A DNA stretch of 40,242 nt from assembly GCA_965263355.1 (NCBI GenBank), contig CBDHHL010000028.1, positions 1 through 40,242 on the forward strand, in the 5' to 3' direction. How positions within the stretch are numbered: the first letter of the stretch is position 1; the number at the start of each line of letters is the position of its first letter. The position numbers and the translations under genes are program-made. Positions 6,777-39,720 of the stretch are shown piece after piece. The notes beneath the pieces were generated by a model. It was not told where the DNA came from. It saw only the letters and a list, made by a program, of their open reading frames with translations, and ran no database searches. The stretch comes from Leptolyngbyaceae cyanobacterium. GTDB lineage: Bacteria; Cyanobacteriota; Cyanobacteriia; Phormidesmidales; Phormidesmidaceae.

Positions 6777-7568
6777 TCAACCTCCAAGTCCTTTGATATA
6801 GTTCCAAATCATATGGTCATCAACTATGAAAGCCTCAGCGGTCAGCCCCTTGATCGCTGAGGCAAACTTTTCGATACGGGTTACTGTGTCAGGCTCTTTG
6901 GCCCTGACATTTTGCCATTCGTCAGGGCTTTCTATGATTTTTCCCGTCTGATGGTTCGTGATTATCTCATGGCACCATGGATGAGACGCACCGACTCTGA
7001 CATCTAAGCCGATTAGGTCTAGTACTTTTTTGGTTGTATCGAAGCTCAGCATAATTCTACACACAGGGTCTGACCCATTGCGGACCTGCCAAGTTTTACT
7101 TTCTAGGCCTAATGCCCGGTGTTTATCGGCCCCGGCTTCATCCATGCCCCTGGGTGCTCCAAAGGTGCTGATACTTTCTACAGGAAAACCATTGTCAGCT
7201 GCAATCATGCCGAACATCAAAGCGATTGCGCCTCCAAGGCTATGGCCAATCAGTTCTAATGGGCTATCTAATAAATTTTCTTTCTGGCAATGCTGCATAA
7301 ACTTCAAAGCGCCATCGTAAAACCCAGTATGAGCCTTGAAGTCTTTGCATTCTTTATGGGGCCAAAAAATTAGATTAGATTGTTTCCAGTCAGACCATAG
7401 GGTATCGGTGCCTCTAAAAATAATGGTTGTTTTTTCTTTGCTTTTGAGATACCAAGCGACATTATTTTCTATCGTTATTTTTTTATAGTGCTCAAGAAAG
7501 CCAGCTGGGTTTTGCAGATAAGAAGCGTGGGCCAGTTGGGCTTGGTAGATGAGTCGGGATTGCTTCAT
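6777..7568 (-). CDS. Class 3 lipase (alpha/beta hydrolase)
   Basis: IIFRGT, HTGF, nucleophile elbow GHSLGGA, STFGAPR, DPV (Asp) and C-terminal DH (His); ATGA overlap with the upstream gene. Confidence 0.9.
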   Translation of the reverse strand: MKQSRLIYQAQLAHASYLQNPAGFLEHYKKITIENNVAWYLKSKEKTTIIFRGTDTLWSDWKQSNLIFWPHKECKDFKAHTGFYDGALKFMQHCQKENLLDSPLELIGHSLGGAIALMFGMIAADNGFPVESISTFGAPRGMDEAGADKHRALGLESKTWQVRNGSDPVCRIMLSFDTTKKVLDLIGLDVRVGASHPWCHEIITNHQTGKIIESPDEWQNVRAKEPDTVTRIEKFASAIKGLTAEAFIVDDHMIWNYIKGLGG

Positions 7569-7762
7569 TTTCGCGGAAAACAATTAGCAATTTCAATACT
7601 TAATACGCCTGCAAAAAATAGCAGAACGGTTAAGGTGAACGCGAGAGCCAGTAATAGACCAAATGCTTGCAGTAGGAAAGATAGTGGGATAATTTTTAGG
7701 ATATGCATTAGCAAAAAACCTATCAGGATAGGTTGCCAGAGCCTATTAAATATCTTGATCAT
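7565..7762 (-). CDS. Small 2-TM membrane protein (holin-like candidate)
   Basis: 65 aa, almost entirely hydrophobic, within the lysis block. Confidence 0.55.
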   Translation of the reverse strand: MIKIFNRLWQPILIGFLLMHILKIIPLSFLLQAFGLLLALAFTLTVLLFFAGVLSIEIANCFPRK

Positions 7763-7771
7763 TTTTTCTTT

Positions 7772-7990
7772 TTAGCTTTCTTTTTCTTCTTCTTTGAAGT
7801 CGCCTTCCCATTTTTTGAATATGCTTTCTTCATGTAAGTCGAACCCCGCGTTAATAATGGCAATTGAGATGGTCGCAAACATCCAGATAATGGCGATCGC
7901 TTGCAGCACTGAGAATTTAACGAACCACAAAGCGATCGCGCCAATCAGAGCCACGCTAGAAGTGAATAGTTCTTTCTGCTTTTGAGACAT
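7772..7990 (-). CDS. Small 2-TM membrane protein (class II holin-like candidate)
   Basis: Two hydrophobic helices and a highly charged C-tail (KKWEGDFKEEEKES), next to the endolysin. Confidence 0.6.
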   Translation of the reverse strand: MSQKQKELFTSSVALIGAIALWFVKFSVLQAIAIIWMFATISIAIINAGFDLHEESIFKKWEGDFKEEEKES

Positions 7991-8087
7991 CAGATTTCCC
8001 TATAGTTGCGGTTTTCTTGACGGGGATCAGTTACGGTAGGCTCGTCGTTAATGGCAAACAGAAAATGGATTTTGTATTTTACGTTGC

Positions 8088-8126
8088 ATTGCCACTGGCG
8101 TTGTTACTGCTAATGCCAGTGGCAAT
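8088..8126. terminator. Stem-loop downstream of the lysozyme gene
   Basis: ATTGCCACTGGC ... GCCAGTGGCAAT perfect 12-bp inverted repeat. Confidence 0.55.
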
Positions 8127-8138
8127 TTTCACTGAGTA

Positions 8139-8876
8139 TCACTCGAACGATTTATAGACTCCTTCATTAAATAGATGGGCTTCAGACTTGCGACGACGTA
8201 CTAAGCCTTGCAATACTTTGTTGCCGCCTTTAACCCACATATTGAAGGCATCGGCTACGCCTTCGAATTCTTCGTTGTTAACCCGCTTTAATAGCGTGGA
8301 ATCCTCCAATGCACCAAGTCCACAGTTGAACGCAAAGCTGACTAACGCCGAAAACTGATCATGGGTCAAGGGTACTGTCACCAGTTCTTGGACCCCATGC
8401 ATAAAGCGTTTCAAATCCTTGTGCAGCAGATCGTCGGCTTCATCTTGGCTAATCGTCATGCCTTCTTGAATATGCTTGCCAGTGCTGCCATAACCGATTG
8501 TTAGGACATTTGCAGCACAATAGTAAGCAGTAAGCTTGCAGCCTTCGAAAGCCTTTAGTAACTCTAGACCTTGATCACTAATTCGGTTGTATGTCGCTGC
8601 TGCAGCACGCACATTAGGATCTGTAGTATCCGCAACTTCGTAGTCGGTGTGGCTGGGTACGAGATAAACAGAGTTTCGCCCGTCAACAGTCTTAAATTTT
8701 TCACCAGGGTCTTGAGATAGCGTGATATATAAATTGTCACGCTCTAATTCGGGTCTTGCTGCAATTATATTAATCCATTCGCCCGCTCTGACTGGTTCTT
8801 TCTCGTAGTCCCCCAGCTGATCAGGGGGGACTGGCCTGTGTTTCAGGAATGAATCCTGTAAAAATGTTACTTTCAT
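8139..8876 (-). CDS. Endolysin, GH24 phage lysozyme with cyanobacterial-type N-terminal domain
   Basis: LLKAFEGCKLTAYYCAANVLTIGYG, QFSALVSFAFNCG, GLVRRRKSE; ATG at 8876 (MKVTFLQDSFLK). Confidence 0.92.
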   Translation of the reverse strand: MKVTFLQDSFLKHRPVPPDQLGDYEKEPVRAGEWINIIAARPELERDNLYITLSQDPGEKFKTVDGRNSVYLVPSHTDYEVADTTDPNVRAAAATYNRISDQGLELLKAFEGCKLTAYYCAANVLTIGYGSTGKHIQEGMTISQDEADDLLHKDLKRFMHGVQELVTVPLTHDQFSALVSFAFNCGLGALEDSTLLKRVNNEEFEGVADAFNMWVKGGNKVLQGLVRRRKSEAHLFNEGVYKSFE

Positions 8877-8880
8877 ATTA

Positions 8881-9717
8881 TTAAAATCCGTAGTTCCACT
8901 CTGCAAAATAACCCCTAGAGTCACCATGCGTAAACACACTGGCAGACGCTAGGGCCACGCCGTTTCTGATGCACCATGGCCGCAAAATCGCGTTGATCTT
9001 GTGGCATGGAATTTGTTTTTTGTTAATAAACACAAGAAAATCCGTCCCGTCACCATAGCAATGGCGAGAACGACTCGCGCCGCCTACACGACGGTTGGTT
9101 TCAGGGTCGCGATACCAGCTGTTGAATGAAATGCTGACTTTCTCAGGCGTCGTTTGATACGCCTCTGCAATAACATCCCTGAATTTTTCAATAGTTGTAT
9201 CGTGGGCAACAATTCGACTTACAACGCCAGCATCAGCAGGCTTGCGCCAAGATTTTGTTTTTGGGTCAAAATGTAGCGCCTCATACCACTTGTTTTTCCC
9301 CTTGCCATAGCGGATGGGGGCGCTCATGTTAAAGGTGCCAGAGCTACCAGGCAACGAAAATTTGAAGTCGTAGGCGTTTACAATTGGCTTGGGTTGGCTC
9401 TCTATCCCGCCATTAAGTGTTGTGATTGTATTCCCGACCGCCTTTTGCTTCTTCTGCGCATCAGTGCCGCCGATGACGACGTGTTTTAGGAAACAAAACC
9501 AGTTATGAAATTTTTGCTTTTTTCTTTTTAGTGAAACTTGAGCATAGTTGCCCTCATCAATCGGTGTGCCTGCATCGTCCTGTTGAGCTTCGGCCCAATT
9601 CAGTTCAAGCACGTCGCCTTCATGCAGCTTGAACTTTTGGTCTTCAGGCAGCTTGCTAGACTGGGTGATTATTCTCAGCAGCCAAGTGTCCCGTTTAGCG
9701 GTCAAGGTTTTAACCAT
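8881..9717 (-). CDS. Endolysin, peptidase M15A-type Zn peptidase with cyanobacterial-type N-terminal domain
   Basis: SWYRDPETNRRVGGASRSRH..GDGTD and FTHGDSR Zn-binding motifs; GGAG then ATG at 9717. Confidence 0.85.
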   Translation of the reverse strand: MVKTLTAKRDTWLLRIITQSSKLPEDQKFKLHEGDVLELNWAEAQQDDAGTPIDEGNYAQVSLKRKKQKFHNWFCFLKHVVIGGTDAQKKQKAVGNTITTLNGGIESQPKPIVNAYDFKFSLPGSSGTFNMSAPIRYGKGKNKWYEALHFDPKTKSWRKPADAGVVSRIVAHDTTIEKFRDVIAEAYQTTPEKVSISFNSWYRDPETNRRVGGASRSRHCYGDGTDFLVFINKKQIPCHKINAILRPWCIRNGVALASASVFTHGDSRGYFAEWNYGF

Positions 9718-9916
9718 GGCCTTCTCCTGTTCTACAATTTCCAAATTTGACCCCTGATGCTACTATTGTATCGAAAGCGGGGTTTTTATTAGCTTGTTTT
9801 CTCCTTAATCGGCTACTGCCTCGCAACTCATGGATTGCGGGGTATTTTTTTTCTGGATTTTTAGAATTAAAACTGTAGATATATTTAGATGAAGTCGAAT
9901 TCAATACGGGAACATT

Positions 9917-10879: not shown

Positions 10880-11644
10880 ATGGATACATGGTTAAGCCCA
10901 CGCGTAATTGAGCGATGCGGAGACAGAGAACTAACGCATGAAATCAACCTGGCTCAGGTGCCGGTTCGCATCGGTCGATCACCTGGGGTATATGAAGCTG
11001 ATTCGTATATTCGGATTGGTGCTATTGCTCCTGCCTTAATTCAGAAACGCATTAGTCGATGTCAGGCCACTATTACTTACAGTTCAGACGGAGAATACTA
11101 TATTAAAGATGGCAACGGGACTGAAAGCGGGCTAGGCGTTTATTATGATGGGAAGCGAATTGAAACGCCTCTAAAATTGCATCCTGGCATCCGTGAATTA
11201 TTGATTGTTCCTCAGCTTCAAGGGGCTAAATATGAATGCCGGTTTCAATGGCTGAAAAGCGAACAGTTAGAGGGGGAAAACGAGGTTGATCCCCTTAAAA
11301 CGATGGGTGCTCGCAACGTATATTTGGAGTCGCAGTTAGAGTCTAAAAATGCTGAAAACTCTCAGCTAGTGGGCGATGTGATCGCGTTGCAGGAACAAGT
11401 AGAATATTTAACTGCTCAGCATCAAAAAGAGAAATTAGCAGAAGTTGAGCAAAATCATAAGATTGCTCAACTTTACACGTCATGGCAGAAATTGAAAAAG
11501 CTTTGGACGGTGCTGGGCGTTTTAATCGCGTTGATTGCAGTCGTTCTACTGGGGATTGACCCTGAGTTGATTAATAAATTGATTAGCGGTGTTATTGTGT
11601 CGTTGACTGCTTTTGGAGTTATAAAGACGCAATCTGGGGATTGA
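10880..11644 (+). CDS. FHA domain + coiled coil + two C-terminal TM helices
   Basis: VRIGRSPG...ISRCQATI...YYIKDG..SGLGVYYDGKRI FHA signature; heptad Q/E/L-rich middle; two hydrophobic C-terminal segments. Confidence 0.8.
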   Translation: MDTWLSPRVIERCGDRELTHEINLAQVPVRIGRSPGVYEADSYIRIGAIAPALIQKRISRCQATITYSSDGEYYIKDGNGTESGLGVYYDGKRIETPLKLHPGIRELLIVPQLQGAKYECRFQWLKSEQLEGENEVDPLKTMGARNVYLESQLESKNAENSQLVGDVIALQEQVEYLTAQHQKEKLAEVEQNHKIAQLYTSWQKLKKLWTVLGVLIALIAVVLLGIDPELINKLISGVIVSLTAFGVIKTQSGD

Positions 11645-11654
11645 TGATTGATGC

Positions 11655-12767
11655 CTAGCTTGCAAGTAAATCCAATAAGCTTAGCTGTTGCTTTTTGGGG
11701 GCTTCCTCAGGTGTTGCGGTCTGTTGTTTTAGCCAGTCTAATCTAGCCTGCTGTGATACAAAGCTTTGTTCTTTGCCGACTTTGCCACGGGCTACATCTG
11801 CCCAATGAGGATCAATATCAATCCCGATAAAATGTCGTCCGTGCTTTTTGGCAGCTACTAGAGTATTGCCGGAACCACAAAAGCAATCTAGGACTACTGA
11901 ATTAGGCTTAGAACTAGCGTTTATTATGTGCGCCATCATGGTCAATGGCTTCTCGCATGGGTGCTTGCCTGGGTAGCTTTGCACTGTGGGAAAGTCCCAT
12001 ATATCGGTGTAGGGTACGTCTGACGATACGATAAACGGTCTACGTAGTTCTTCGTATTGCTGACATAGTTCTTCGTATTGCTGACGTAGTTCTTCGTATG
12101 GGCGTTGAAAGTAACCGGGGAATGAGTCTTGGAGGGTTTTGTACTGGTCTTCTAGAGGCAACTTCCATTGAATAGGGCTAAAAAAATGCGAGTCATGCCC
12201 CCGCATCCCAAGAATATGTATTATTCGTCTATGTGCAATTTTGGCTTTGGTCCTCTCTCCATCCAAATACGCTCGCAACGGTTCAAAAACAAACCCGCGC
12301 AACTCATCACACTTTGCCTGATAACCTGCTGCGCCTTTAGCTGCGTTATCTGCGCCGTAATGTTCACAAAAGATAATTGATTCCGATGCAGGAAAATAGC
12401 CTCTAAGAATTTCTTTGCATGATGCTTTATGTCTTCCTTGTTCCTTCCGCCATCGAATATTATTCAGCACATTAAACCGATCGCTCAACAACACCTCAAC
12501 TTGTGCTGACATTTTTGTGCTCGCGAAACAATACAGGCTGCCATTAGGTTTTAGGATGCGTTGCCATTGTGCGGCTAGCTGGTCAATCCATCTTAAGAAT
12601 TCTGCTGAATTATCCCAGGCGCGATCCCACCATTCGAATTTACCTTTAGAACCGCCCCCTTTTACCTTAAAAAAAGGCGGGTCAGTTGCTATTAGATCAA
12701 TGCTGCTATCAGGGATGCCGTCCATCACTTCCAAGCAATCGCCCTGAATAACTTGATTTAATTCCAT
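11655..12767 (-). CDS. DNA N4/N6-methyltransferase, beta class (MTase-1)
   Basis: QGDCLEVM, motif IV TDPPF, HPCEKP, motif I DCFCGSG, FIGIDID; ATG at 12767. Confidence 0.92.
   Translation of the reverse strand: MELNQVIQGDCLEVMDGIPDSSIDLIATDPPFFKVKGGGSKGKFEWWDRAWDNSAEFLRWIDQLAAQWQRILKPNGSLYCFASTKMSAQVEVLLSDRFNVLNNIRWRKEQGRHKASCKEILRGYFPASESIIFCEHYGADNAAKGAAGYQAKCDELRGFVFEPLRAYLDGERTKAKIAHRRIIHILGMRGHDSHFFSPIQWKLPLEDQYKTLQDSFPGYFQRPYEELRQQYEELCQQYEELRRPFIVSSDVPYTDIWDFPTVQSYPGKHPCEKPLTMMAHIINASSKPNSVVLDCFCGSGNTLVAAKKHGRHFIGIDIDPHWADVARGKVGKEQSFVSQQARLDWLKQQTATPEEAPKKQQLSLLDLLAS
12042..12099. repeat. 21-bp tandem repeat x~2.8 encoding YEELRQQ heptads in MTase-1
   Basis: ACGTAGTTCTTCGTATTGCTG units at 12042, 12063 and 12084. 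Confidence 0.85.
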
Positions 12768-12854
12768 AGCAAAACTTAGCACAATCACACTAGGACATTA
12801 TCCCCTGAAAATGCCAGAATAGAGCTAAGCTGTCAACCTTGGATATGTCGTGAG
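12761..12854. repeat. ~94-bp direct repeat copy 1 (upstream region of MTase-1)
   Basis: Core 12795-12846 matches 13724-13775 with one mismatch; flanks align at a 929-bp offset; contains minus-strand TTGACA. Confidence 0.9.
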
Positions 12855-12861
12855 ATTCCGT

Positions 12862-13563
12862 TCAGCTTGCCAATGCATCCCAGATATCTAGCTGCTCTTT
12901 TTCTGCAATAGGTTTCTTGTCGCTAGGCTCTGTTTGCCCCGGTGCCCATACTTCATTAATACGGTTTTTAGCGATCTCAAAATAATCAGTATCTAGTTCA
13001 ATCCCAATAAACTTACGACCTAGTTTTTTGGCCGCAACTCCGGTACTGCCACTGCCCATAGTAAAGTCTAGGACGGTTTCCCCTGGTAGCGTGTAGGTTT
13101 TGATTAGGTACTCCATGAGAGCAACGGGCTTTTGGGTAGGGTGGAGTCGGTCAATCCTATTCGCATTGCTAACTTGAATAAGATTAGTGGGGTAATACTC
13201 ATCATTGCGAGTGCCATCATTGCGAGTGCCGTTATTGAACACTCCCACCCACTGATTGCCGCTCCCTTTTGTTTTTAATTTCCCTTTCTTTTTTAGAGGG
13301 AAATAACAATGCTTCCCAAACACCAATATATTTTCAGTAACTTTTAGAGGTTGGTATGGGGCATTTGCAAAATTGGCAGCTAGTTTTTTATCCCACACCC
13401 AATCATATTTATAGTCTTTAATATTACTCATCCTAAGAGCACTACTAAAAGGCTCACTTCCAAATAAAGCTATTGCCCCATTAGGCTTAACTAGTTTCTT
13501 TAATCTCATCCACATTTCATCAAACGGGATTACGCTATCCCATTTGCAAGCGGTCGTGCTCAA
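12862..13563 (-). CDS. MTase-2 C-terminal part (beta-class N4/N6 methyltransferase lacking motif IV)
   Basis: TTACKWDSVIP, HPTQKPVALMEYLIKTYT, motif I DFTMGSG, FIGIELD; begins at a TTG overlapping the upstream TGA. Confidence 0.85.
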   Translation of the reverse strand: MSTTACKWDSVIPFDEMWMRLKKLVKPNGAIALFGSEPFSSALRMSNIKDYKYDWVWDKKLAANFANAPYQPLKVTENILVFGKHCYFPLKKKGKLKTKGSGNQWVGVFNNGTRNDGTRNDEYYPTNLIQVSNANRIDRLHPTQKPVALMEYLIKTYTLPGETVLDFTMGSGSTGVAAKKLGRKFIGIELDTDYFEIAKNRINEVWAPGQTEPSDKKPIAEKEQLDIWDALAS

Positions 13564-14280: not shown

Positions 14281-14808
14281 CTAGTCTAGCACATCTAATT
14301 TTGTTTGCCATACAAAAGACGGCAGTAGTCCTTGAGCACCGTTTAAGATTTGCATGGATTCAACCAAAGTTTTGAATGTTTTAAGATAAATATCTGGATT
14401 CTTTTCCGAAAGCCGATTACCTGCGATGTTCACCTTTTCAACATCATTACTACAAATATAATCGGCTAATTCTTCGGCGCTAGGATTTATTAGCAATAAT
14501 TTTTTTAGATTTTTTGCAGTTCCTATTGTGAGCCTTCCACCTGGGCTATTTTGACGACCGAACCATACAGTTAAGTCTGTGTCAAAAACATTTGCTTTTG
14601 TCCTAGGTGGATATCCAGCCTCAGGATACTCTTTGAGGCCGAACATTTTAAGTGAGTAATCCGATATATTTTCTCCTGACCAAGTTTGAATCATGTAACC
14701 TTTGGCGGCCCATCCACCAGTTTTGAATCCGCAATACCTAGCAGCATCTAAACCCGCTCTATCTGCTCCGGTCTGGCCACCAGAATGAAACTTTAATTGT
14801 TTGAACAT
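14281..14808 (-). CDS. SLOG-superfamily protein (MoCo_carrier / cpYpsA-like)
   Basis: SGGQTGADRAGLDAA, GGWAAKG, YPPRTKANV, VNIAGNR hallmark motifs; ATG at 14808. Confidence 0.82.
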   Translation of the reverse strand: MFKQLKFHSGGQTGADRAGLDAARYCGFKTGGWAAKGYMIQTWSGENISDYSLKMFGLKEYPEAGYPPRTKANVFDTDLTVWFGRQNSPGGRLTIGTAKNLKKLLLINPSAEELADYICSNDVEKVNIAGNRLSEKNPDIYLKTFKTLVESMQILNGAQGLLPSFVWQTKLDVLD

Positions 14809-14845
14809 TTTTTTGTGCTGTGCTAATCCTTTATTTTTTAAGTCT

Positions 14846-15208
14846 CTAATAAGAAATACGATCAGGTAAATTAGCATTTAATGGCAATGCAGATTGAGCG
14901 TATTGAGGCAGTCGTTTAACCACCCTCCATCCTTTTGTTTTCAATGAACCTGCTAAATAATATCCTTTCCCAAAAGCCCAGTCTTCTCTGTACTCAACAC
15001 CTTCTAATCTTAAAAACTTAGTTCTTTCATCTAGCGATGCAGCTAACCGCATTTCCTTAAACAATCGGCGTGAATGATTTGAATACGCAAGCACGAAGCC
15101 TTCTTCAACTCGCAAAGAATCAAAATCTTCCATAGGGTGCCTATCATTGATAATTTTTTGAGCAATGATGACACCATGGGCAGCTTTTCTTGTAGTTACA
15201 AACGCCAT
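14846..15208 (-). CDS. Hypothetical protein
   Basis: 120-aa ATG ORF downstream of the leftward promoter. Confidence 0.6.
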   Translation of the reverse strand: MAFVTTRKAAHGVIIAQKIINDRHPMEDFDSLRVEEGFVLAYSNHSRRLFKEMRLAASLDERTKFLRLEGVEYREDWAFGKGYYLAGSLKTKGWRVVKRLPQYAQSALPLNANLPDRISY

Positions 15209-17902: not shown

Positions 17903-18628
17903 TTAGGCAAACAACCAGGGCTGAATTACTTTTGTATGCCGATTGCGGATAAGTCGAAGAAACTCTGTCTTTTCTCCACATACAATCATTAGTTCGTATG
18001 ACGTGCGAATATAGTCTTTTAAGACCTGAGTATCAGCGTCATCTGTCAGGTACTGATGTTGCTTTGACTTTCTACGTCCTTTGGTATCTTGCGGGTTTAC
18101 TTCATTCAGCCTGTCTAGAACAGCTTTAGGCATCCAATCGTAAACAGCTTTATTGATGAAGCCTGACATACAACGGTAGCTCCAGCGCCATCCGGTTAAT
18201 CGCTCAGCTTCAGCCCTCCATTCTGGGAAAAAGTGCTCTTCCCATTGCTGAGGATGGTCAAGAACCCATGCTTCAATTGCTAAATTTTCAGTAGGCTGAA
18301 CTAAAGCTTTGAGCGCAGCTTTAGCTTTTGAAAATGCTTGTATTAGTTCGACTTTGCATTTTACGACATCTGGCGTATTGCGACTCAATGTCATAACGAA
18401 GGTCGCTTGATCTTCGTTGAGTAGGCAGTATTTGGGGCGTCGTCCCGGCCCATTTAATTTCTCCGTTTCAAACCTGAAAATTCCAAACGCCTGCGTAGCA
18501 ATAGTTCTGTGCTTTTCGATAGTTTCTAAGAAATTAGAATGATCAATTCCTAGCCGTTCTGCAATCAGCCTAGAATCAACTACTAATTCTCCATCGCAAT
18601 TGAATGCGGTAATATCTGTATTAGCCAT
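17903..18628 (-). CDS. Rha-family antirepressor fused to a P63C-like domain
   Basis: VVDSRLIAERLGIDH...LLNEDQATFVMTLSRNT...LIQAF (Rha); WEEHF..E...RLTGW...VYDWMP..VL..L...NP....GRRKSKQHQYLT (P63C). Confidence 0.8.
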   Translation of the reverse strand: MANTDITAFNCDGELVVDSRLIAERLGIDHSNFLETIEKHRTIATQAFGIFRFETEKLNGPGRRPKYCLLNEDQATFVMTLSRNTPDVVKCKVELIQAFSKAKAALKALVQPTENLAIEAWVLDHPQQWEEHFFPEWRAEAERLTGWRWSYRCMSGFINKAVYDWMPKAVLDRLNEVNPQDTKGRRKSKQHQYLTDDADTQVLKDYIRTSYELMIVCGEKTEFLRLIRNRHTKVIQPWLFA

Positions 18629-18707
18629 GTACTTACTTCCGTTAAGTTTGTGGTTAAGCAGCTGCCAATAGTTCCAATATTGGGAGCTGCTGCCAATCAT
18701 AGCATTT

Positions 18708-19874
18708 TTACTGATGCTCAACTAGTTCAATATGAGCCATATGATCAGGCTGGCTGTCCGCTATCGATTTCGCTTGTTGCTCAATAAATTCAGCATCAAC
18801 AGATATGGGGCACGGCTCAATTTTGACATCAAAGTTATTTATCAACGCTTCATAAACCATCGGATTTATGCCCGTCTCAACATTGATTAGTTCATCCAGT
18901 GAAGCGAAGTTATCGAGACATTGATTGCCTTGATAGTGGCTGCCGCAATCGCCCATAGTCTTTATATGGCGATCCCCAGCCATTACATTGCGGATTACTT
19001 GAGCAGTCGTGTCTTTTTCTGTATACTCGCCCGCGTCACAGGTGCGTGCATTGCTAGCAAATGTGTTGTTTTTTACGGTATTAATTCGGCTGTCATTCCC
19101 CTTAACAGTATTCAGGCCAACTCCAGATTTGCCATTAAACATACTGAGATTGTCTTTAATCAGTAGATTGCCCCGATAGATGCCCGTATCGTTTTGAAAA
19201 TGAATGCCGTTCCCTTCATCTAAGGCCATGGTTGCGAAACCCTTAGAAAGTACTCGTGAGATTACATTGCATTGGTTTCCAAAAACCAGATTTTCAGAGA
19301 TTTCATACAACGTTTCCGTCGGCCCTTTTGGCTGACTGTTGGCAATGCCATGGCTGCCAGAAATTGAATACCAGCAATTATGATAAATGACACTACCTTT
19401 AATCAGATGAGAGTGCCCATCCTTGTTAGTAATCCCCCCACCTGGAAAATGATGGATTTTACATCCCTGAATTTTGATGTTTGAGCAATTGTTTAATGCG
19501 ATGCCCCGTCCTGTTATTTGAAGCGGCGCATTATGCCACCATAAAGACAATGCATAGTCTAGGTCTAAATCCTGGCTGTGGCCTGCAAATTCTATATCAC
19601 TGATATAAATGTGATTGGAGTTTTTTATCGCTAAGCCATTCACGTCAGAGACTATAGTCACAGGGCCATCACCAAACGGCATTATCCTAATTGGAGCTTC
19701 GGCTGTTCCTTTTAGCCCACTAGCAAAAAAAGCATTTCCACGGGTCCGTGTTTCCCATGAAGTGTTGTATTCTTCATGTTGATAAACGCCAGACTTTAGC
19801 AGGATACGATCGCTCGCCTCAACAACTTTGAGTGCACTTTGAAATTGATCTGATGTCTCGATGATGTATCTCAT
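18708..19874 (-). CDS. Right-handed beta-helix (pectin lyase-like) protein
   Basis: ILLKSGVY, GTAEAPIRI, repeated Asn/Gly/Ile coils (GRGIALNNCSNIKIQGCKIHH, GNGIHF, IKDNLSMFNGKSG); no signal peptide. Confidence 0.8.
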   Translation of the reverse strand: MRYIIETSDQFQSALKVVEASDRILLKSGVYQHEEYNTSWETRTRGNAFFASGLKGTAEAPIRIMPFGDGPVTIVSDVNGLAIKNSNHIYISDIEFAGHSQDLDLDYALSLWWHNAPLQITGRGIALNNCSNIKIQGCKIHHFPGGGITNKDGHSHLIKGSVIYHNCWYSISGSHGIANSQPKGPTETLYEISENLVFGNQCNVISRVLSKGFATMALDEGNGIHFQNDTGIYRGNLLIKDNLSMFNGKSGVGLNTVKGNDSRINTVKNNTFASNARTCDAGEYTEKDTTAQVIRNVMAGDRHIKTMGDCGSHYQGNQCLDNFASLDELINVETGINPMVYEALINNFDVKIEPCPISVDAEFIEQQAKSIADSQPDHMAHIELVEHQ

Positions 19875-19877
19875 TGA

Positions 19878-20513
19878 TTAGCTCCCGAAAAAGCCTGCAT
19901 TACTTGCATCAAACGCAAAGATAGGACTTGCCCTAATAGACTCCGCAACAGTTTCTTTGTTTGCCATGACTCTATCAAAGCCAAAGGCTACATACCCAAA
20001 TATATCGCCATTTTGAGCCAGTATGGGGCAAGAAATAGTTAGCTGAATATTATTTGGTTCTAGCTGCTGTCTCAATAGGCCTTCTGGGAGATCCTTGGTA
20101 GGCTTGACCCAGCATTGACCTAACTTATGATAATCAAGTTGCTCTAGATATATATCCTCTTGCTGGATATCTAACCACCCGTAGGTTGCTGATACTGGCA
20201 CTCCGATTCGTGCGATCGCAAAACTAAAGCGCCGACGCTGGTCCTCGTCGTACAAAAATGACCCTACCCATTGAGCGTTTAGCCTATCGCCCATGGATGT
20301 AATAACATCTTCGATACTTTGTTGATATATAAGCCCCCTAGCGATGCCCTGTGCTATAGAACCAGGCGTTTTGATTTGCAAGCAAGCCTCGCTAAACTGA
20401 GTATGACTCGTCCAGAAAAGAACTAGGCCAAAAAATAACCCAATCGATGCGATTATGAACGCCCGACCTAATTGTGTTCTAAGGAATGGAAACAATGCTC
20501 TATCGTTTCGCAT
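19878..20513 (-). CDS. Single-TM protein with C-terminal GAF-like domain, T4 holin T-like
   Basis: 211 aa; basic N-terminus, TM at ~18-34; LDYHKLGQCW and LTISCPILAQNGDIFGYVAFGFDR parallel T4 T (YTVHLNGRHY; YMYSCPYFNLDNIYAGTITMYWYR, recalled). Confidence 0.55.
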   Translation of the reverse strand: MRNDRALFPFLRTQLGRAFIIASIGLFFGLVLFWTSHTQFSEACLQIKTPGSIAQGIARGLIYQQSIEDVITSMGDRLNAQWVGSFLYDEDQRRRFSFAIARIGVPVSATYGWLDIQQEDIYLEQLDYHKLGQCWVKPTKDLPEGLLRQQLEPNNIQLTISCPILAQNGDIFGYVAFGFDRVMANKETVAESIRASPIFAFDASNAGFFGS

Positions 20514-21246
20514 TAGGAGTTTTGCTATCTATTGACTTTTCATTAGCCATGTCCTTAGCCTTTGATACAATACCAACAGCTGCACCGGTCGCGTTAACGA
20601 GCGCCCCGATTACTAGGATCGTAGCGTCTCTGCCAAAAGACATCAGTTCCGTTGGCACTCGCCTAAAAATACTTAATAAAAATGGGGTCAGATAGAAAAA
20701 AACACCCGCATAGATCAGCCATTTAACGACAAGTTCTTGTAGCTCAGACTGGCGCAATTGAACTTGCATATCCTTGTTGGACGCTTTCAGTTCTTTATTG
20801 GATTTCTCCAATTGCAAGATCAAATCTCGTTCCTGTTGCTCTTGCTCCTTTATTTGTTCTTCTTGGCGTAAATATTCTGTCCGGTCTCGAACGACTTCGC
20901 CTACATAAGTTTCACCTTCGTGATTGACAATAAATAGTCGTAGCCAGATAGGGATCTGTCGTCCCATTCGTGTTTTGCCAAAAAGCGGAGCTTCAGAACC
21001 CATATCACGGGTCCTTTGCCCACGGAGAAACGCGTCATACATTCTGTCATGAGCGCCTTCTGATATAAGGGATTCGGGAACCAAACTGTAGACTTTCAAG
21101 CCAACCATTGCCGTTGGATTTTCGTACTCAAAAAGTCTAGCCGCTGCTGGGTTAGCAAGGACTATTTTGCGTTGTGAATTCCCAAAGATGACGGGATCAG
21201 GATTGAATTCAAATCCAGCTCTTGCTAACGCTGCGTCAGGCATCAA
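20500..21246 (-). CDS. FixL-like PAS domain + coiled coil + two TM helices
   Basis: NPDPVI...IVLANPAAARLFEY....MVGLKVYSLVPE...HDRMY...RDMG...GKTRMGRQIPI...VVRDRTE PAS/PAC; Q/E-rich coiled coil; two hydrophobic helices; no kinase domain. Confidence 0.85.
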   Translation of the reverse strand: MMPDAALARAGFEFNPDPVIFGNSQRKIVLANPAAARLFEYENPTAMVGLKVYSLVPESLISEGAHDRMYDAFLRGQRTRDMGSEAPLFGKTRMGRQIPIWLRLFIVNHEGETYVGEVVRDRTEYLRQEEQIKEQEQQERDLILQLEKSNKELKASNKDMQVQLRQSELQELVVKWLIYAGVFFYLTPFLLSIFRRVPTELMSFGRDATILVIGALVNATGAAVGIVSKAKDMANEKSIDSKTPNAKR

Positions 21247-21313: not shown

Positions 21314-23305
21314 TTAAGCAACTAGAACAATGAGCACGTAACCACCGCCGCCGTTACCTCCCGACGCATCTACAGTGCCATCTGAGCCGGTACCTCCCCC
21401 ACCACCGGCACCTGGCCCCGAACCATCACTAGCCGGATTCGTAGTGCCTCCGAAATTGCCCCCCTTACCTCCGGTTCCAAAGGCGTTAGGGTTATCTTTA
21501 TCAGGGATCACGACGCCATTGCCAGCGCCACCACTGGGGATACCAAACGCCGTTGGACCGGATCCCGCACTGGCTGATCCTCCACCACTGCCAGAACCCG
21601 GCCCCCCGTTACTTGTGCCCCCTTGAGACTGGGTAGCCCCCAGCTGTCCATTAGGTAACGCACTAGCTCCATCACCACCTTGTGCACCATTACGATAGAC
21701 GATGCCAGGAATGCTAGAGCTGCCGTTCCCCCCTGGTCCGCCTAACCCCCCGGCTATGTCTACGGTATCAACGGTGGATGTCTGGCCAGCAGCACCCCCA
21801 ACACCGCCCCTAAGCGTTATGGCATCAAACGGCCCTACAGCATCTATGGTTACTTGGCCTCCAGATGAACCGTTAGAGTTTGCAGATCCACCAAGGCCAG
21901 GATTGCCGATAGTCCCGGTTATCGTTTGCCCTTGCAGTGATAGCGGAAACGCCTGCACCAGTTCTAAAGAATCTCCTGAGCCACCGCCGCCGCCGCCAGA
22001 CTTACCGTTACTATAGTCACTTTGAGCGCCGCCGCCACCTCCGCCACCGGGAGCCGAGGCATATAGTCTAAATTCGCTATAAAGGTTGATCGGCACTGTG
22101 AAACTGAATGACCCTGGAGTGTTAAATAGTATGATCTCATCAGCTGTCGCTGGAGCACTTAGGCTCAGATCCTCAAAAACAAAAAAGACATATCCTCTAG
22201 CCCCCGATCCTCCCCTGGGAGATATGCCCGTATTGCCTGGTGCTCCTGGGCCACCACCTCCCCCTGCTCCTCTTAGTTCTCCTGATTGAGCCCTCAAGAA
22301 CAACCGAGCATTGCCCCCATCGCCACCATCACCATAGACTCTCGGATTGTCTTGCGTTATCTCCTGAGCACTATTAAAACCGGTTCCCCCGGTTGCAACG
22401 TTAGCCGGAAATAAGTTTCCCGATGAGTGACCCCCGCCGCCGCCGCCTCCAGTGCCCCCATAAGATTCCCCATTGCCAGGAGTGTTGTTAGTGTTAGTTA
22501 CCCCCCGAGAACCATTGCCGCCCCTACCGCCGGGAATAGTGACTAGTGAGGCGAATCCCTCGGTGACCTGGCCACCGGCTCCCCCTTGAGGGTTTGTCAG
22601 ACTAGCATGTTGTCCACCAGAGCCACCGCGAGCAAGGATCCTCGGGAAATTACCCCAGGCATTAATAATAGTGCTTCTCCCGCTGCCCCCTGGTGTCGGG
22701 CCACCATCACCTCCGGACCCTGCGCTCCCGCCACGTCCTACAGAAAGATTAATATTTTGTCCTCTTAAATCAGTCCCGTAGGGAAAGCGTACAAGCTCAA
22801 AAGCTGCGCCACCACCTCCTCCTCCGCCACCTGAGAGTATGGCAAAAGAGAACGTGTTAAATTGGCCTCCTCCGCCACCTCCGCCCCCTCCTGCGCCATA
22901 TATCGACATATGAGTATACGGATAAGTAGGCGATACGAAAGAAAAGTTACCGGCTGCCTCGAATAAGAAAAGCTCAGTCTGAGCCTCGATCTCCAGCACC
23001 GGTAACGGCTGAGTGAAGCTAGACCCATCGGACAACGTAATCACATAAGACGGATAGTACGTGCCCGGAGAGTAAACATGCGATATCGCATAGGGAGATA
23101 TAAGTGGTTTAAGTCCAGAATCCCCTGGATTAAATTGTATAGCAGTTACCGAGACACCAACCCCTACATTAAATAACTGTAGATTGTACTCTCTAGCGGT
23201 GTCTGCAGATTCCTCAAACGTATGATACACATGAGTCTGGGCGACATCAGACTCACTGAGATTAGGATACTCCGCAAGCCCTTGAAGGTAACGAACGATG
23301 CCCAT
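21314..23305 (-). CDS. Glycine-rich virion/tail-fibre-like protein with two Gly-rich domains
   Basis: Two repeats of F..(A/P)G.FSF..P....GGGGGGG ... GxxGYVxxV; N-terminal PKD-like HVYSPGTYYPSYVIT. Confidence 0.75.
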   Translation of the reverse strand: MGIVRYLQGLAEYPNLSESDVAQTHVYHTFEESADTAREYNLQLFNVGVGVSVTAIQFNPGDSGLKPLISPYAISHVYSPGTYYPSYVITLSDGSSFTQPLPVLEIEAQTELFLFEAAGNFSFVSPTYPYTHMSIYGAGGGGGGGGGQFNTFSFAILSGGGGGGGGAAFELVRFPYGTDLRGQNINLSVGRGGSAGSGGDGGPTPGGSGRSTIINAWGNFPRILARGGSGGQHASLTNPQGGAGGQVTEGFASLVTIPGGRGGNGSRGVTNTNNTPGNGESYGGTGGGGGGGHSSGNLFPANVATGGTGFNSAQEITQDNPRVYGDGGDGGNARLFLRAQSGELRGAGGGGGPGAPGNTGISPRGGSGARGYVFFVFEDLSLSAPATADEIILFNTPGSFSFTVPINLYSEFRLYASAPGGGGGGGAQSDYSNGKSGGGGGGSGDSLELVQAFPLSLQGQTITGTIGNPGLGGSANSNGSSGGQVTIDAVGPFDAITLRGGVGGAAGQTSTVDTVDIAGGLGGPGGNGSSSIPGIVYRNGAQGGDGASALPNGQLGATQSQGGTSNGGPGSGSGGGSASAGSGPTAFGIPSGGAGNGVVIPDKDNPNAFGTGGKGGNFGGTTNPASDGSGPGAGGGGGTGSDGTVDASGGNGGGGYVLIVLVA

Positions 23306-31290: not shown

Positions 31291-32283
31291 TTATGCAACA
31301 GCATTAGAAATTAAGTAACCGTGAGTGATTAAGTTAGCGTCATTCACGCCAACAGCCTGCACTGAACGATCAAAGTCAAGCTTGTAAACGGTTGCGCCGC
31401 GATCGTCATCACGGTATGGGGAGAATACTTGAGGGTTGCCCATATAGGTATAAGTGTAACCATAACTAGGCTCCTCCTGGTCAATTGTCCCAGTAGTCCG
31501 GAAAGGTAGGCGATCTTGACGCAATGCTGACGGGTTTGTATAGGCCATGACAAGGTTCTTGCCAAAGACATATTCCTTTGTCCCGTTAGCCCGCTTAACC
31601 AAAGCTGAGCACACCCGAACCTCATCAAACCCGTAGAAGTTAGCTAGCATTTCAGTGGTCAAACTGTCTCGCGTAGTGTGTTTCAAGCGGTCTTTGATCA
31701 ATTCATTTTCTTGAATGGTATCAAAAACTTCACGGCCCATCACCATCACATTTGGATCAACTCCAATCTGTTGAGCGATAGCAGAACGACCGGCCCGAAT
31801 ATAAGTACCAGGGTTAGAGGATGGATCATTAAACTGTTGCGCACCAGCAAGAGCAATTTGATTGCCTGCTGCGTAATTGGCTGGTGTAACCGCTACAGCA
31901 GCTGACTCAATCTCATGCTTAAGGCCAGCTCGTTGGATCATCCGAGTAGACGCACGACGCCCCCAGTTGATGTTCATCCGTTCCATTTTCTTGGCTTTTT
32001 TATCTCCTACGCGATAACTAAAGCCTTTGATACTCAACGAATAAGCAGCGCCCTGGTAACCGTCCTGAACTTCAGGATAGGTCGTGTCATCAGCTCGGTT
32101 ATCGTCAATTTCTTCATAGATTGCGTCATCAAAGCGAATGATGCGACCGTCATAATCCCCTGTCTCTACAAGTGGGAAAAGTGCCCGCATAACAAACTGC
32201 GGCATCTTAAAGCCTTGAGCCACATTTGTTAAGCTGATCGATACGCCAGCACTTGCATTCCGTAAGCTGTTTGGTGTTCCCAT
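31291..32283 (-). CDS. Major capsid protein (HK97 fold, gpE-like)
   Basis: 330 aa after scaffold and cement genes; LTNVAQGF, LFPLV, DPNVMVMGREVF, PSYGYTY motifs typical of this capsid family. Confidence 0.85.
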   Translation of the reverse strand: MGTPNSLRNASAGVSISLTNVAQGFKMPQFVMRALFPLVETGDYDGRIIRFDDAIYEEIDDNRADDTTYPEVQDGYQGAAYSLSIKGFSYRVGDKKAKKMERMNINWGRRASTRMIQRAGLKHEIESAAVAVTPANYAAGNQIALAGAQQFNDPSSNPGTYIRAGRSAIAQQIGVDPNVMVMGREVFDTIQENELIKDRLKHTTRDSLTTEMLANFYGFDEVRVCSALVKRANGTKEYVFGKNLVMAYTNPSALRQDRLPFRTTGTIDQEEPSYGYTYTYMGNPQVFSPYRDDDRGATVYKLDFDRSVQAVGVNDANLITHGYLISNAVA

Positions 32284-34709: not shown

Positions 34710-35363
34710 GGCACCACGTCTAATTGCCTCCTCAAGGCTCATATAAATAATTGAACATTTGCAGTTGTTACGGCACTCACACGCTTCTGTCGGCATAACT
34801 AATTCATCTATCGGCAACGGTGGGAATGACGCGTATATAGGGCAGCTAGGGCAATGGTCAACAGGGGCTAACTGTCGAATCCCATAAGTTAAGCCTTGCC
34901 GTCTAGCTATTTCTCGCTTAAACCTATTTTCTAAGGTGCGATCGCTGTCCCCAAACGCCCTAAGCCTGTTCTGTAATTGGGATAATGAATTTTTGCCCGC
35001 CAATAAATCCCTAACTAGCCACGCAAGCCCAAACGCTGTCCCGGTCAATTCCTCAAGACCTAAATAATATTGCTCCTTTAATGCAAATTGAATCATTCGC
35101 CTTAGTTGTTGGTCTGGTAAGTCGTTAAACTCATTTGCTTTTAACCAGTGCAAGTCACGAAGAATTACGGCGGCCCTGGATTGAAACTCGCGAGTGCCAA
35201 TGGTTTGACTAGCTAGCAATGCGGCCAATGCAATAAGCGCCGCAATTAAACTGTCCCTCTCTTGGTTGGGTATCGATTCAGACTCCGCAATCAAATCATA
35301 ATCAGCATTAGATAAAATGCCGTCATCCAATAAAATGATTGGTTCCAAGAGATCAAGCGGCAT
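34701..35363 (-). CDS. Minor head morphogenesis protein (Mu gpF / SPP1 gp7-like)
   Basis: HCPSC...P....CECRNNCKCSI Cys motif, directly after the portal gene. Confidence 0.72.
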   Translation of the reverse strand: MPLDLLEPIILLDDGILSNADYDLIAESESIPNQERDSLIAALIALAALLASQTIGTREFQSRAAVILRDLHWLKANEFNDLPDQQLRRMIQFALKEQYYLGLEELTGTAFGLAWLVRDLLAGKNSLSQLQNRLRAFGDSDRTLENRFKREIARRQGLTYGIRQLAPVDHCPSCPIYASFPPLPIDELVMPTEACECRNNCKCSIIYMSLEEAIRRGASV

Positions 35364-37826: not shown

Positions 37827-39209
37827 CTAGTCAAGTGAAGTGATTTTTTCTCTAATGGGTCTCGATGGGGGTGCTGCTGATCTTTTATCCCCTCCACGTC
37901 CTTTTATTAAGGGCTCTAGTCCATAGCGTACGGAGTCTAGAACATGATTATCCTTATCCACGATTTGAGCTAAAACATCCCCACCCTTATTCTCTTTATA
38001 ACGATATCGTTTAAGCTCCGTTTGAGTATTAACACAATTAGGATGCACTAAAATTTCAAAGCTTCTTAGCCAGTCGATCCCATCTTCCACACAGTTTGGC
38101 CATTTACTGCAAGGCCTCAAATTTGGGAATCCATGCCGTCTTAAATAGCTTATACTCTCAGGTCGCGCATTATCAGCCCTACAAATGGCTTTCTCCATGC
38201 CAGGAATATCTTTAAGCCATCTATTAGCAATCTTGTCTGTCTCTAATCGATAAGCGTAGCTCTCGCGGCTAATGTATACTTGCTGGCCACTAACCCATAT
38301 CTCAACGGCTGCAGTCGGGTCATTAGCAAAACCCCAATCTGCTCCATAATATGGCCCATCCCAAGTGGCTGTGTCAGTCTCTGCAATACGCCAGCGGCCC
38401 GCAAACACAACTGCATCAGACTTAACATTATAGCCTCCAAGCCAGATCCATTCATGCTTTTCTGGGTCTGCTATTCGGTCCCGTTCTTCATCGTCTTTAC
38501 TGGTCTGAGTTAAGAATGGATTGTCCTTAAAACTGATGCCTTTGATAATCGAATTCTTTGGTAAATTCGGCCCTCTAAAAAAATAATCAACTGGGTCTGT
38601 CGGTTGATCTGGGTTCCATGAAAACCAAGTCTCGGCACCTTCACTTCTCAAAGTCGGGATAAGAAGATCTAACGAAAACTGATCAATCTCTGACGCTTCA
38701 TCAACCCACGCAATACCAAAATTTTCAAAACCTTTAATCGATGATGCGTTATGGTCCTGCATCCCGACAAAAGTGATAAATCCCCTCCCACCCTTCCGCT
38801 TGATTTGCGTCTGTTGCACATCAAAATAGTCATCCCAGCCAAGGTCAGTGACTTTATTTTTTAACAGCAGCTGAGTTGAGTTTGTAAGCGTTACTCGATA
38901 TTTACGAATACAAACACATTGCAAGTCAGGATCGCAAATCATCCTAGCCAACATCAGCTCTGCAAATGTATGACTTTTCCCACAAGCTCTGCCCCCATAT
39001 GCAGCCTTAAACCGTGCAGGCTTAAAAAAATCTAAGGCCCATTCTGGCGTTTTTGGCAGCAATTCTTGAGGCGCTTTGGGTAGCGCTTCTAACGCTTTAG
39101 CCCTCTTTATCCTGCATTGCCGGTCTATGCGCTTATGCAACTCCCGCATGGACGGAGTGTTAGCAACAGCCTTGGCCATAATCGAGCTACTGCTTTTCCG
39201 TCTCGACAC
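37827..39209 (-). CDS. terL: Terminase large subunit, PBSX-type
   Basis: Walker A YGGRACGKSH, Walker B WVDEA, FSWNP, nuclease GADWGFANDP, ADNARPE, DKDNHVLDSVRY. Confidence 0.95.
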   Translation of the reverse strand: MSRRKSSSSIMAKAVANTPSMRELHKRIDRQCRIKRAKALEALPKAPQELLPKTPEWALDFFKPARFKAAYGGRACGKSHTFAELMLARMICDPDLQCVCIRKYRVTLTNSTQLLLKNKVTDLGWDDYFDVQQTQIKRKGGRGFITFVGMQDHNASSIKGFENFGIAWVDEASEIDQFSLDLLIPTLRSEGAETWFSWNPDQPTDPVDYFFRGPNLPKNSIIKGISFKDNPFLTQTSKDDEERDRIADPEKHEWIWLGGYNVKSDAVVFAGRWRIAETDTATWDGPYYGADWGFANDPTAAVEIWVSGQQVYISRESYAYRLETDKIANRWLKDIPGMEKAICRADNARPESISYLRRHGFPNLRPCSKWPNCVEDGIDWLRSFEILVHPNCVNTQTELKRYRYKENKGGDVLAQIVDKDNHVLDSVRYGLEPLIKGRGGDKRSAAPPSRPIREKITSLD

Positions 39210-39720
39210 TAGCAGCCTCCAACTGTTCTTTTAGCTCAGAAATGCCCAACGCCTCAGCCCATACTTGAGGCGCATATTTCATAAAATCACCAATAATGCC
39301 GCTCAGCTGCTTCATCTCCGCAAAAGTCTTGGGGTGCCGATCCTTATCCTTCATGATCCGCTCAGCCGATTCTTGAAGGATTTTGCTGCAAAGCATCACA
39401 TTATTAAACGCAGCTTTTCCCGCGTTTTCATGCATCCGTCGGAAATCCTCTAGATCAGCCTCATACTTCTCTAAAGCTGCTTGCTTTCTCGCCTCATTCT
39501 TAGCATCTTGTATCCATTGGTGGTGTGCGTCTAACCGCTCTTCCCACTTCCAATCAATTTTCCATGTCTGCCAACGACCTGAAACCCTGGCATCTGGCTT
39601 GCCAGTATATTCTCTATAAACGTCAGTAATGTTTTTCTCTGGCCACCGCTTAAGCACTGCCTCAAATGCGTTATATGCAGCTACTGATTCCCCAGGCTGC
39701 TTGTTCCATGGCATGTTCAT
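39187..39720 (-). CDS. Putative terminase small subunit
   Basis: PWNKQPGESVAAYNAF...W...WKWEER helical pattern; overlaps the terL start. Confidence 0.62.
   Translation of the reverse strand: MNMPWNKQPGESVAAYNAFEAVLKRWPEKNITDVYREYTGKPDARVSGRWQTWKIDWKWEERLDAHHQWIQDAKNEARKQAALEKYEADLEDFRRMHENAGKAAFNNVMLCSKILQESAERIMKDKDRHPKTFAEMKQLSGIIGDFMKYAPQVWAEALGISELKEQLEAASVETEKQ

Follow-up and report, generated by a model that had tools for sequence, protein, structure and literature searches.

A PAS membrane protein gene that overlaps a putative T-type holin gene in a novel siphovirus-like cyanophage or prophage: a candidate signal-gated lysis pair

Can a phage tie the moment of host lysis to a signal from inside its host? 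This question is raised by two overlapping genes on contig CBDHHL010000028.1 of a Leptolyngbyaceae cyanobacterium (assembly GCA_965263355.1), a stretch of 40,242 nucleotides that was analyzed in full and is called the window below. Phage fitness and burst size are set by lysis timing. To our knowledge, the sole well-understood case of signal-responsive lysis control is T4 lysis inhibition, in which RI and RIII act on holin T. A first-pass annotation, made from the sequence without database searches, proposed that one gene of the pair encodes a FixL-like heme-PAS membrane protein (here the PAS protein) and the other a T4-holin-T-like protein (here ORF211), and that together they form a signal-gated lysis module. 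Both open reading frames (ORFs) were found where that annotation had placed them, on the minus strand, with 248 and 211 amino acids and an overlap of 14 nucleotides (Table 1). The best reading of the pair is that ORF211 is a T-type holin gated by the PAS protein, which would serve as a sensor antiholin or modulator, and we adopt it tentatively. Both similarity claims behind the original proposal held up, and its arguments from O2 sensing and from gene position were weakened.

ORF211 is in our judgment very probably a remote homologue of holin T, although it is not a member of that family by the Pfam criterion. Hydropathy predicts a protein with its N terminus inside the cell and one transmembrane (TM) segment. 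The N terminus carries a net charge of +3, and the outer part of approximately 170 residues contains three cysteines (C44, C134, and C162). The family is rare, as only 16 relatives (E ≤0.001) turned up when 1.84 billion representative proteins were searched exhaustively with its profile. For the comparison with holin T, a search with T4 gene t yielded 136 relatives, from which 22, chosen among 120 to span 45–77% identity, were combined with T4 T to give a profile of 23 rows (A4). When the ORF211 family profile (A3) was aligned to it with hhalign, 159 collinear columns, which begin at the TM helix and reach the last strands, were matched with a probability of 75.2, a P value of 2.5e-5, and a score of 43.5. 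Column shuffles of the T profile (100 in all) scored 14.8 ± 2.9 with a maximum of 25.2, reversed profiles scored 12.8, and an unrelated membrane profile, that of the PAS protein, scored 12.3–13.9. The outer domains by themselves, with both TM regions cut, scored 33.6 (P 3.7e-4) versus 14.6 ± 3.1 for 60 shuffles (maximum 23.6). With the HMMER filters off, A3 placed all 23 T holins (4.8–21.4 bits) above every one of 313 decoys (best 4.1 bits), which consisted of window ORFs and of reversed and shuffled sequences. The resemblance of this single-TM protein of 211 amino acids to T4 holin T was thus borne out, with moderate strength, as remote homology by a profile–profile test with controls, and the Pfam model fails to see it.

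The alignment also brings conserved residues together. In the ORF211 family alignment of 20 sequences, H129, C134, C162, P163, and G173 are invariant and Cys44 is frequent. Invariant or nearly invariant residues of the two families coincide at H129/H145, G132/G148, S161-C162-P163/S174-C175-P176, and G173/G186, and the spacing from Cys to Gly is 11 residues in both (SCP-x9-G). The SCP..N....G.I motif that had been noticed by eye as an echo of T therefore falls on aligned positions of holin T, S174-C175-P176...G186. The nearest ESM Atlas neighbor of ORF211 is a "Holin family protein" cluster in which 45% of the members carry PF11031 (score 0.94, 182 of 256 shared features), and every listed neighbor is viral.

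Conventional family and structure searches with ORF211 gave a more diffuse picture. ORF211 itself matches no Pfam family at E ≤1; it matches phrog_33305, a PHROG without a function, at E 5.2e-4, as do 7 of the 20 family members. The family profile had no match among PDB sequences at E ≤10. GAF-type Pfam matches occur in 3 of the 20 members (best E 5.7e-4), so that the GAF-like C-terminal domain of the first-pass annotation has a trace in the family and remains weakly supported. In a BFVD search with the poor predicted structure of ORF211, class III or T holins took ranks 10, 12, and 25, and the top match was a "GAF domain-containing protein". The GAF signals bear on a rival explanation, in which the pair is a membrane sensor module with no part in lysis, for example a moron, a device for superinfection exclusion or host physiology, or a tail-fiber accessory. 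The T-like domain would then be a reused GAF-like ligand-binding fold, and the real holin would be a 72-residue ORF elsewhere in the window, with or without a neighboring 65-residue ORF. We regard this explanation as rather unlikely. The weak GAF matches and the best BFVD match speak for it, but the only characterized relatives of ORF211 are holins.

A role of ORF211 as a gp38-like tail-fiber chaperone was considered and rejected, as a membrane anchor and an outer Cys domain do not suit a cytoplasmic assembly factor. Among the remote relatives, P0022 and P0023 (398 and 380 amino acids) are extended at the C terminus, and the extension repeats the core motif of the outer domain (ICPI...G..IG), so that the T-like globular domain appears to be duplicated in tandem.

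The second similarity claim concerns the sensor. In a Foldseek search of the PDB, the top 10 matches of the PAS domain were all FixL or EcDOS heme domains (E from 2e-7, TMt 0.71–0.82, 24–28% identity). A profile of five sequences compared with all PDB sequences gave 16 matches at E ≤0.01, 14 of which are heme PAS domains (DosP, EcDOS, FixL, and FG214); the remaining two are CitA PAS domains with E values of about 0.008. The single sequence gave 12 matches, all to FixL or DosP heme PAS domains. NCBIfam ranked the generic sensory_box model first, followed by FixL (1.3e-6) and DosP (4.5e-4), both across their heme-PAS regions. His66 of the phage protein is invariant in all five sequences and aligns with the His of "AHPEY" in DosP and "RHDSY" in FixL. 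We take these aligned residues to be the proximal heme ligands, presumably His77 in DosP and His200 in BjFixL. The phage protein has no cysteine and a single further histidine, which is not conserved. Both the FixL-like character and the retained His66 of the first-pass annotation are therefore confirmed, and the domain probably binds heme b through this residue.

The PAS protein has no recognizable enzymatic output. Its PAS domain was detected by Pfam PAS_9 (E 7.2e-7, 29.9 bits with a cut-off of 27, residues 16–124) and TIGR00229 (29.5 bits with a cut-off of 22.9), and across the 248 residues Pfam and NCBIfam reported PAS families only, with no kinase, cyclase, or other output family. Hydropathy indicates two TM segments. 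The AlphaFold2 (AF2) model, with a mean predicted local distance difference test (pLDDT) value of 69.5, shows an unbroken helix from residue 123 to 196 and a second helix from 202 to 235. Most blocks of 10 residues in the PAS region have mean pLDDT values of 70–90, and two are lower (58 and 62). The first description of the protein, a PAS domain and a coiled coil followed by two TM segments without a kinase or cyclase, agrees with all of these predictions. The chain ends 20 residues past TM2 with a short, basic and charged tail.

Conservation is concentrated in the membrane part. Among four PAS-protein sequences, identity is 97% in the juxtamembrane helix (residues 159–175), 90% in the outer loop, 83% in TM2, and 77% in TM1, and it falls to 69% in the PAS domain, 61% in the coiled coil, and 39% in the tail. 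In the alignment of five sequences, G221-x3-G225 in TM2 is invariant. Because the hairpin and its loop are conserved above the level of the PAS domain, the hairpin appears to be more than an anchor. It may even be the hole-forming element. In this rival explanation the roles are reversed or shared: the hairpin would be a PAS-gated hole-former with the topology of a class II holin or pinholin, and ORF211 would be a T-like regulator or co-holin. We know of no holin that bears a cytoplasmic domain of 170 residues, and searches of Pfam, PHROGs, and NCBIfam linked the hairpin to no holin family, nor does the ESM Atlas offer a usable neighbor for residues 165–248. What speaks for the reversal, besides the conserved hairpin, loop, juxtamembrane helix, and glycine pair, is a two-TM topology with both termini inside and a charged tail, evident from the sequence. 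The function of the T globular domain also agrees with it: T can form holes without this outer domain, which serves only in regulation, by antiholin RI (PMC12162936, PMC11413866). On balance, reversed or shared roles seem improbable to us.

Several observations bear on whether the two genes belong together. The overlap between the end of the PAS gene and the start of the ORF211 gene suggests translational coupling. All four relatives of the PAS protein begin at the codon after the TTG start, and ATG 21243, which gives 247 amino acids, is the probable true start. Each protein has exactly four close relatives among 5.8 billion clusters, with identities of 98, 88, 57, and 55% for ORF211 and 99, 76, 70, and 66% for the PAS protein. 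For two of the four relative pairs, both proteins come from contigs of the same size, 42393 and 91294 bp. This parallel divergence, together with the two pairs common to contigs of these sizes, makes it likely that both genes co-occur in the relatives, at the level of the contig and short of adjacency. No family member was recovered from genome, viral, or metagenome contig searches; the one locus returned was discarded as a chance motif match within an unrelated ORF of 640 amino acids. Likewise, when ORF211, the PAS protein, P0022, and P0015 were used as tblastn queries, none of 50,697 phage records was matched.

ORF211 might be a T-type holin while the PAS protein is an independent membrane-anchored sensor with another target, the overlap being compact gene packing. 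Short overlaps are common in this operon, and the gene after ORF211 starts 3 nucleotides past its end. Moreover, the ORF211 TM segment diverges while the PAS hairpin stays, which argues against tight TM–TM co-evolution. The parallel divergence and the contigs common to two of the four pairs run counter to independence, as does the fact that the sole output of the PAS protein is its membrane hairpin, and we give this explanation little credence. A complex prediction for the pair gave a score of 0.00; it was run without controls and is evidence neither for nor against binding. If the two proteins touch, the most likely contact would be between the conserved outer loop and the T-like outer domain. 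The PAS protein matches no antiholin family in Pfam, PHROGs, or NCBIfam. Compared with the known antiholins T4 RI and RIII and P1 LydB, it could be said to work like them, by analogy, and not to be a member of their families.

Several findings weigh against reading the pair as a sensor-gated T-type holin. On the holin side, PF11031 (Phage_holin_T) is matched neither by ORF211 nor by any of the 20 family members at E ≤5; in a control, all 23 T holins matched it. The reverse search with the T profile clearly picked one ORF211 relative (15.3 bits), and the others were mixed with decoys. The AlphaFold model of ORF211 is poor (pLDDT 39) and shows helices at residues 51–72 followed by a beta-rich domain. 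T has two invariant Cys residues, Cys175 and Cys207, which presumably pair as a disulfide; Cys207 has no counterpart, and no Cys follows C162 in ORF211. A periplasmic disulfide has a key role in holin T (PMC12162936). Any disulfide in ORF211 would be wired differently from that of T, and the invariant C134 and the frequent C44 could pair. Conservation is also unevenly spread: the outer globular domain has 76% identity among relatives versus approximately 40% for the N terminus and TM segment, the least conserved parts of ORF211, and it is these parts that the same source describes as essential for hole formation by T (PMC12162936). Their poor conservation favors a module apart from lysis.

On the sensor side, the predicted heme binding hangs on a single His, seen in five sequences that are close relatives. 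The positions of the FixL arginines R206 and R220 (R97 in DosP) are occupied by Ala72 and Ala86, both invariant, and the position of DosP Met95 is Ser, Lys, or Arg in the phage family. Finally, immediately after the endolysin come the 72-residue ORF, which with its two TM segments looks like a canonical holin, and the 65-residue ORF, and these may be the true holin.

The lost arginines bear on the nature of the signal. The first-pass annotation had remarked that the distal Arg of FixL was not evident, and the Ala residues at both positions agree with that remark. In the PDB searches, mutant chains scored above the wild types because the phage protein has Ala at the mutated positions; these chains were DosP R97A, FixL R220A (1y28), and 2cmn, the descriptor of which mentions "a proximal arginine residue in the switching mechanism". 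Since both FixL signaling arginines are lost, classic reversible O2 binding is a less likely signal than heme redox state, nitric oxide (NO), carbon monoxide (CO), or another ligand. The proposed sensing of O2 or redox state thus survives in part: a classic O2 switch is doubtful, given the alanines and the lost Met95, and redox state is among the likelier signals.

The window holds a separate lysis cluster 10 kb downstream of the pair, with two endolysin genes, a lipase gene, and the two small ORFs just mentioned. Inspection revealed no evident signal sequence in either endolysin, and both would therefore require a large-hole holin. The N-terminal region of the lysozyme endolysin, approximately 120 amino acids, has no assignment. 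The class-3 lipase may be an accessory of lysis that disrupts the outer membrane, by analogy with mycobacteriophage LysB. Because this cluster has its own small holin-like ORFs with two TM segments, the positional argument for the pair is weaker than first proposed. It had been stated that the pair sits directly after the last virion gene. The pair does follow a tail-fiber-like gene, but "last" is not established, as a possible tailspike or depolymerase comes after. These observations strengthen the case for a membrane sensor module apart from lysis. The 72-residue ORF in the separate cluster has the charged tail of a holin candidate, and the pair lies between the tail-fiber-like gene and the block of beta-helix and Rha anti-repressor genes, a typical site for accessory genes. 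Against such a module, the 72- and 65-residue ORFs match no family, holin families included. PADLOC reported no family (E ≤0.1) for the two pair proteins and four other window proteins. A simple consensus scan, limited for promoters to the sigma-70 type, found between the fiber gene and the pair no promoter-like or terminator-like site on the minus strand that would mark the pair off from the late operon.

The genomic setting is that of a phage. The window is a novel siphovirus-like cyanophage or prophage, and the pair belongs to its late operon. All late genes run on the minus strand, and large tail-region genes without assignment lie between the capsid gene and the tail-fiber-like gene. The large terminase has distant relatives only (≤42.5% identity), and the closest matches of the capsid protein are Nodularia siphophages (44–45% identity). 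The HIP1 octamer, which we take to be a cyanobacteria-linked motif, occurs 7 times in the window versus 0.46 expected (approximately 15-fold), and none of 100 shuffles reached 7. The phage host is thus very probably a cyanobacterium, as judged from sequence composition and relatives. Two HIP1 copies (7893-7900 and 7932-7939) lie within the 72-residue holin-like ORF and one (20212-20219) within ORF211. The 40-kb window showed neither a tRNA gene nor a terminal repeat, and it showed no integrase although an anti-repressor-like gene of the Rha/P63C type is present.

Table 1. Coordinates of the gene pair, its domains and key residues, and other features of the window.
Feature	Position	Strand	Evidence or remark
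PAS / long helix / two-TM hairpin protein gene	20500..21246	-	ORF; 248 amino acids from TTG 21246
Cytoplasmic FixL/DosP-like PAS domain, residues 9-122	20881..21222	-	Foldseek, PDB sequence matches
Coiled-coil / signaling helix, residues 123-175, runs into TM1	20722..20880	-	AF2 model
Membrane hairpin: TM1 176-194, outer loop RRVPTELMSFGRD 195-207 (13 amino acids), TM2 208-228	20563..20721	-	Hydropathy
His66 codon, candidate proximal heme ligand	21049..21051	-	Aligns with His of DosP and FixL
Ala72 codon, position mutated in 2cmn	21031-21033	-
Ala86 codon, position of FixL R220 / DosP R97	20989..20991	-
Overlap of PAS-gene end and ORF211 start, 14 nucleotides, ATGCGAAACGATAG	20500..20513	-
ORF211 gene	19878..20513	-	ORF with ATG start, 211 amino acids
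ORF211 layout: basic N terminus 1-18, one TM ~15/19-37, bridge 38-76, outer globular domain 77-198
ORF211 outer-domain conserved core: H129, G132, C134, S161-C162-P163, G173	19995..20129	-
Glycine-rich tail-fiber-like protein, upstream neighbor	21314..23305	-	Pfam Gly_rich_2 1.8e-18; PHROG minor tail / tail fiber families
Beta-helix protein, downstream neighbor, 388 amino acids	18708..19874	-	Pfam Beta_helix 3.5e-5, under its cut-off
Rha/P63C anti-repressor-like gene, after beta-helix gene	17903-18721
Lysis cluster with rival holin candidates	6777..9744	-	10 kb downstream of pair; endolysins 8139-9744
M15 peptidase	8881-9744	-	Pfam, PHROGs
Lysozyme endolysin	8139-8939	-	Phage_lysozyme E 1.5e-46
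72-residue ORF	7772-7990	-	Two hydrophobic (TM) segments, highly charged tail
65-residue membrane ORF	7565-7762	-	Hydropathy
Class-3 lipase/esterase	6777-7583	-
Small terminase	39187-39783	-
Large terminase	37827-39209	-
Mu-type portal	35353-37824	-
Major capsid	31291-32283	-	Protease and cement protein also in this late-gene run

The immediate neighbors of the pair have features of their own. The tail-fiber-like gene upstream has a G+C content of 54% versus approximately 44% elsewhere in the window, and its product consists of two mutually similar glycine-rich halves, as seen from Pfam and PHROG matches. The beta-helix protein downstream, a possible tailspike or depolymerase, had no match among PDB sequences.

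Other genes of the window are also of note. The portal protein (823 amino acids) combines a Mu-type portal domain (PF06074, 1.3e-51) with a C-terminal InPase domain (PF18823, 2.4e-20), and one of the PHROG annotations that it matches is "minor head protein and DNA pilot"; it may represent a portal fused to an enzymatic head protein that is ejected. A plus-strand gene in the early or middle region (10880-11644) encodes a protein of 254 amino acids that has an FHA domain at its N terminus (2.1e-8) and a strongly hydrophobic C-terminal segment (residues 208–226, Kyte–Doolittle (KD) value 2.86), which is predicted to be a membrane-anchored phosphopeptide-binding protein. On the minus strand, 11655-13563 and 14281-14877 hold two adjacent N6/N4 DNA methyltransferase genes (377 and 233 amino acids) and a gene for a circularly permuted YpsA SLOG-family protein (3.6e-25), and these proteins probably act in anti-restriction or the handling of a nucleotide signal. 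A D5-like primase/helicase of 749 amino acids (776-3025, minus strand) has an N-terminal DUF3854 (Toprim-like) region.

If the PAS protein does gate a T-type holin, the pair might work as follows. Late in infection, ORF211 would build up in the cytoplasmic membrane and then open holes through which the signal-less endolysins, encoded 10 kb away, would be released. The PAS protein would act as a sensor antiholin or as a modulator of the holin. A rigid helix would join its cytoplasmic PAS domain, probably with bound heme b, to the conserved membrane hairpin, the 13-residue outer loop and GxxxG helix of which would touch the holin. A change of ligand or redox state in the PAS domain would be relayed by the helix to the hairpin and shift the time at which the holin triggers. 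The PAS protein would thus be an "inside-out" analogue of T4 RI and RIII. The sequence shows the genes, their overlap, the domain architectures, both similarities, the late-operon position, and the cyanobacterial host signal; that the PAS domain binds heme, that ORF211 forms holes, that the two proteins touch, and in which direction the regulation runs are what we infer. A bolder version is that the pair is the first recognized lysis clock under the control of a sensor domain, in which a heme-PAS antiholin would read the redox or gas state of the host, which would follow photosynthesis and the day–night cycle, and would relay it by way of the rigid helix and the invariant hairpin to the outer regulatory domain of a T-type holin, to allow a burst only in favorable conditions. 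We consider this version unlikely as it stands, and speculative.

The novelty of the proposal lies in the regulator and in the type of phage. Control of holin T by antiholins is known; a sensor-domain regulator, and its occurrence in a siphovirus-like cyanophage, would be new. The first-pass annotation knew of no described PAS-controlled holin, and our search of the literature, which covered mostly titles and the openings of abstracts, likewise found no paper in which a holin or antiholin is tied to a PAS domain. The same search found none on the T4 holin together with GAF. One paper reportedly describes a class III holin-like protein in cyanophage MaMV-DC. A T-type holin beyond the T4-like phages would extend the T4 lysis-inhibition paradigm, and would mean that Pfam PF11031 covers only part of the holin T family. 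If the gating is real, lysis timing in this phage would answer to the internal chemistry of the host and not to superinfection. It could then help to explain light- or diel-dependent lysis in cyanobacteria and would be relevant to models of bloom termination. The pair (247 and 211 amino acids) would also be a compact, testable unit for the engineering of ligand-controlled lysis.

Comparison with known systems places the two proteins as follows. T4 holin T (gene t; PF11031; outer domain PDB 6PSK, 6PX4, and 6PXE) is close to ORF211 in length (218 versus 211 amino acids) and in layout, with a short cytoplasmic N terminus, a single TM segment, a bridge helix, and a large outer globular domain (PMC12162936). 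The two families share a collinear profile alignment and the H..G and S-C-P-x9-G motifs. Gene t lies directly after tail-fiber genes 37 and 38 and away from the T4 endolysin gene, and the ORF211 gene is placed similarly. They differ in that identity over the aligned columns is approximately 10%, with the ORF211 family below Pfam detection, and in the cytoplasmic N-terminal segment, which has approximately 34 amino acids in T versus approximately 18 in ORF211. ORF211 lacks a counterpart of Cys207 and has the invariant Cys134 and the frequent Cys44 instead. Holin T comes from a T4-like myovirus, whereas ORF211 comes from a siphovirus-like cyanophage of approximately 40 kb.

The T4 antiholins RI, which is periplasmic, and RIII, which is cytoplasmic, resemble the proposed regulator in that a separate protein binds a T-type holin and a signal sets lysis timing (PMC11413866). 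In contrast, the PAS protein is unrelated to them in sequence, has a cytoplasmic sensor domain and a two-TM hairpin, and is encoded by a gene that overlaps the putative holin gene.

As sensors, FixL of Bradyrhizobium and Rhizobium and DosP/EcDOS are nearly the sole solved relatives of the PAS protein and share with it the aligned proximal His. Their C-terminal "RDxTE" junction, which leads into a helix, is present in the phage protein too. Unlike them, the phage protein has no kinase or EAL/GGDEF output, and its output would be the membrane hairpin; it has Ala in place of R206 and R220 (DosP R97), and Met95 is replaced by Ser, Lys, or Arg. In overall layout, a parallel is offered by the Aer aerotaxis receptors, in which an N-terminal, cytoplasmic PAS domain is followed by a membrane hairpin, a two-helix anchor with a very short outer loop. 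Aer receptors bind flavin adenine dinucleotide (FAD) and continue into HAMP and kinase-control domains, whereas the phage PAS protein stops 20 residues after TM2.

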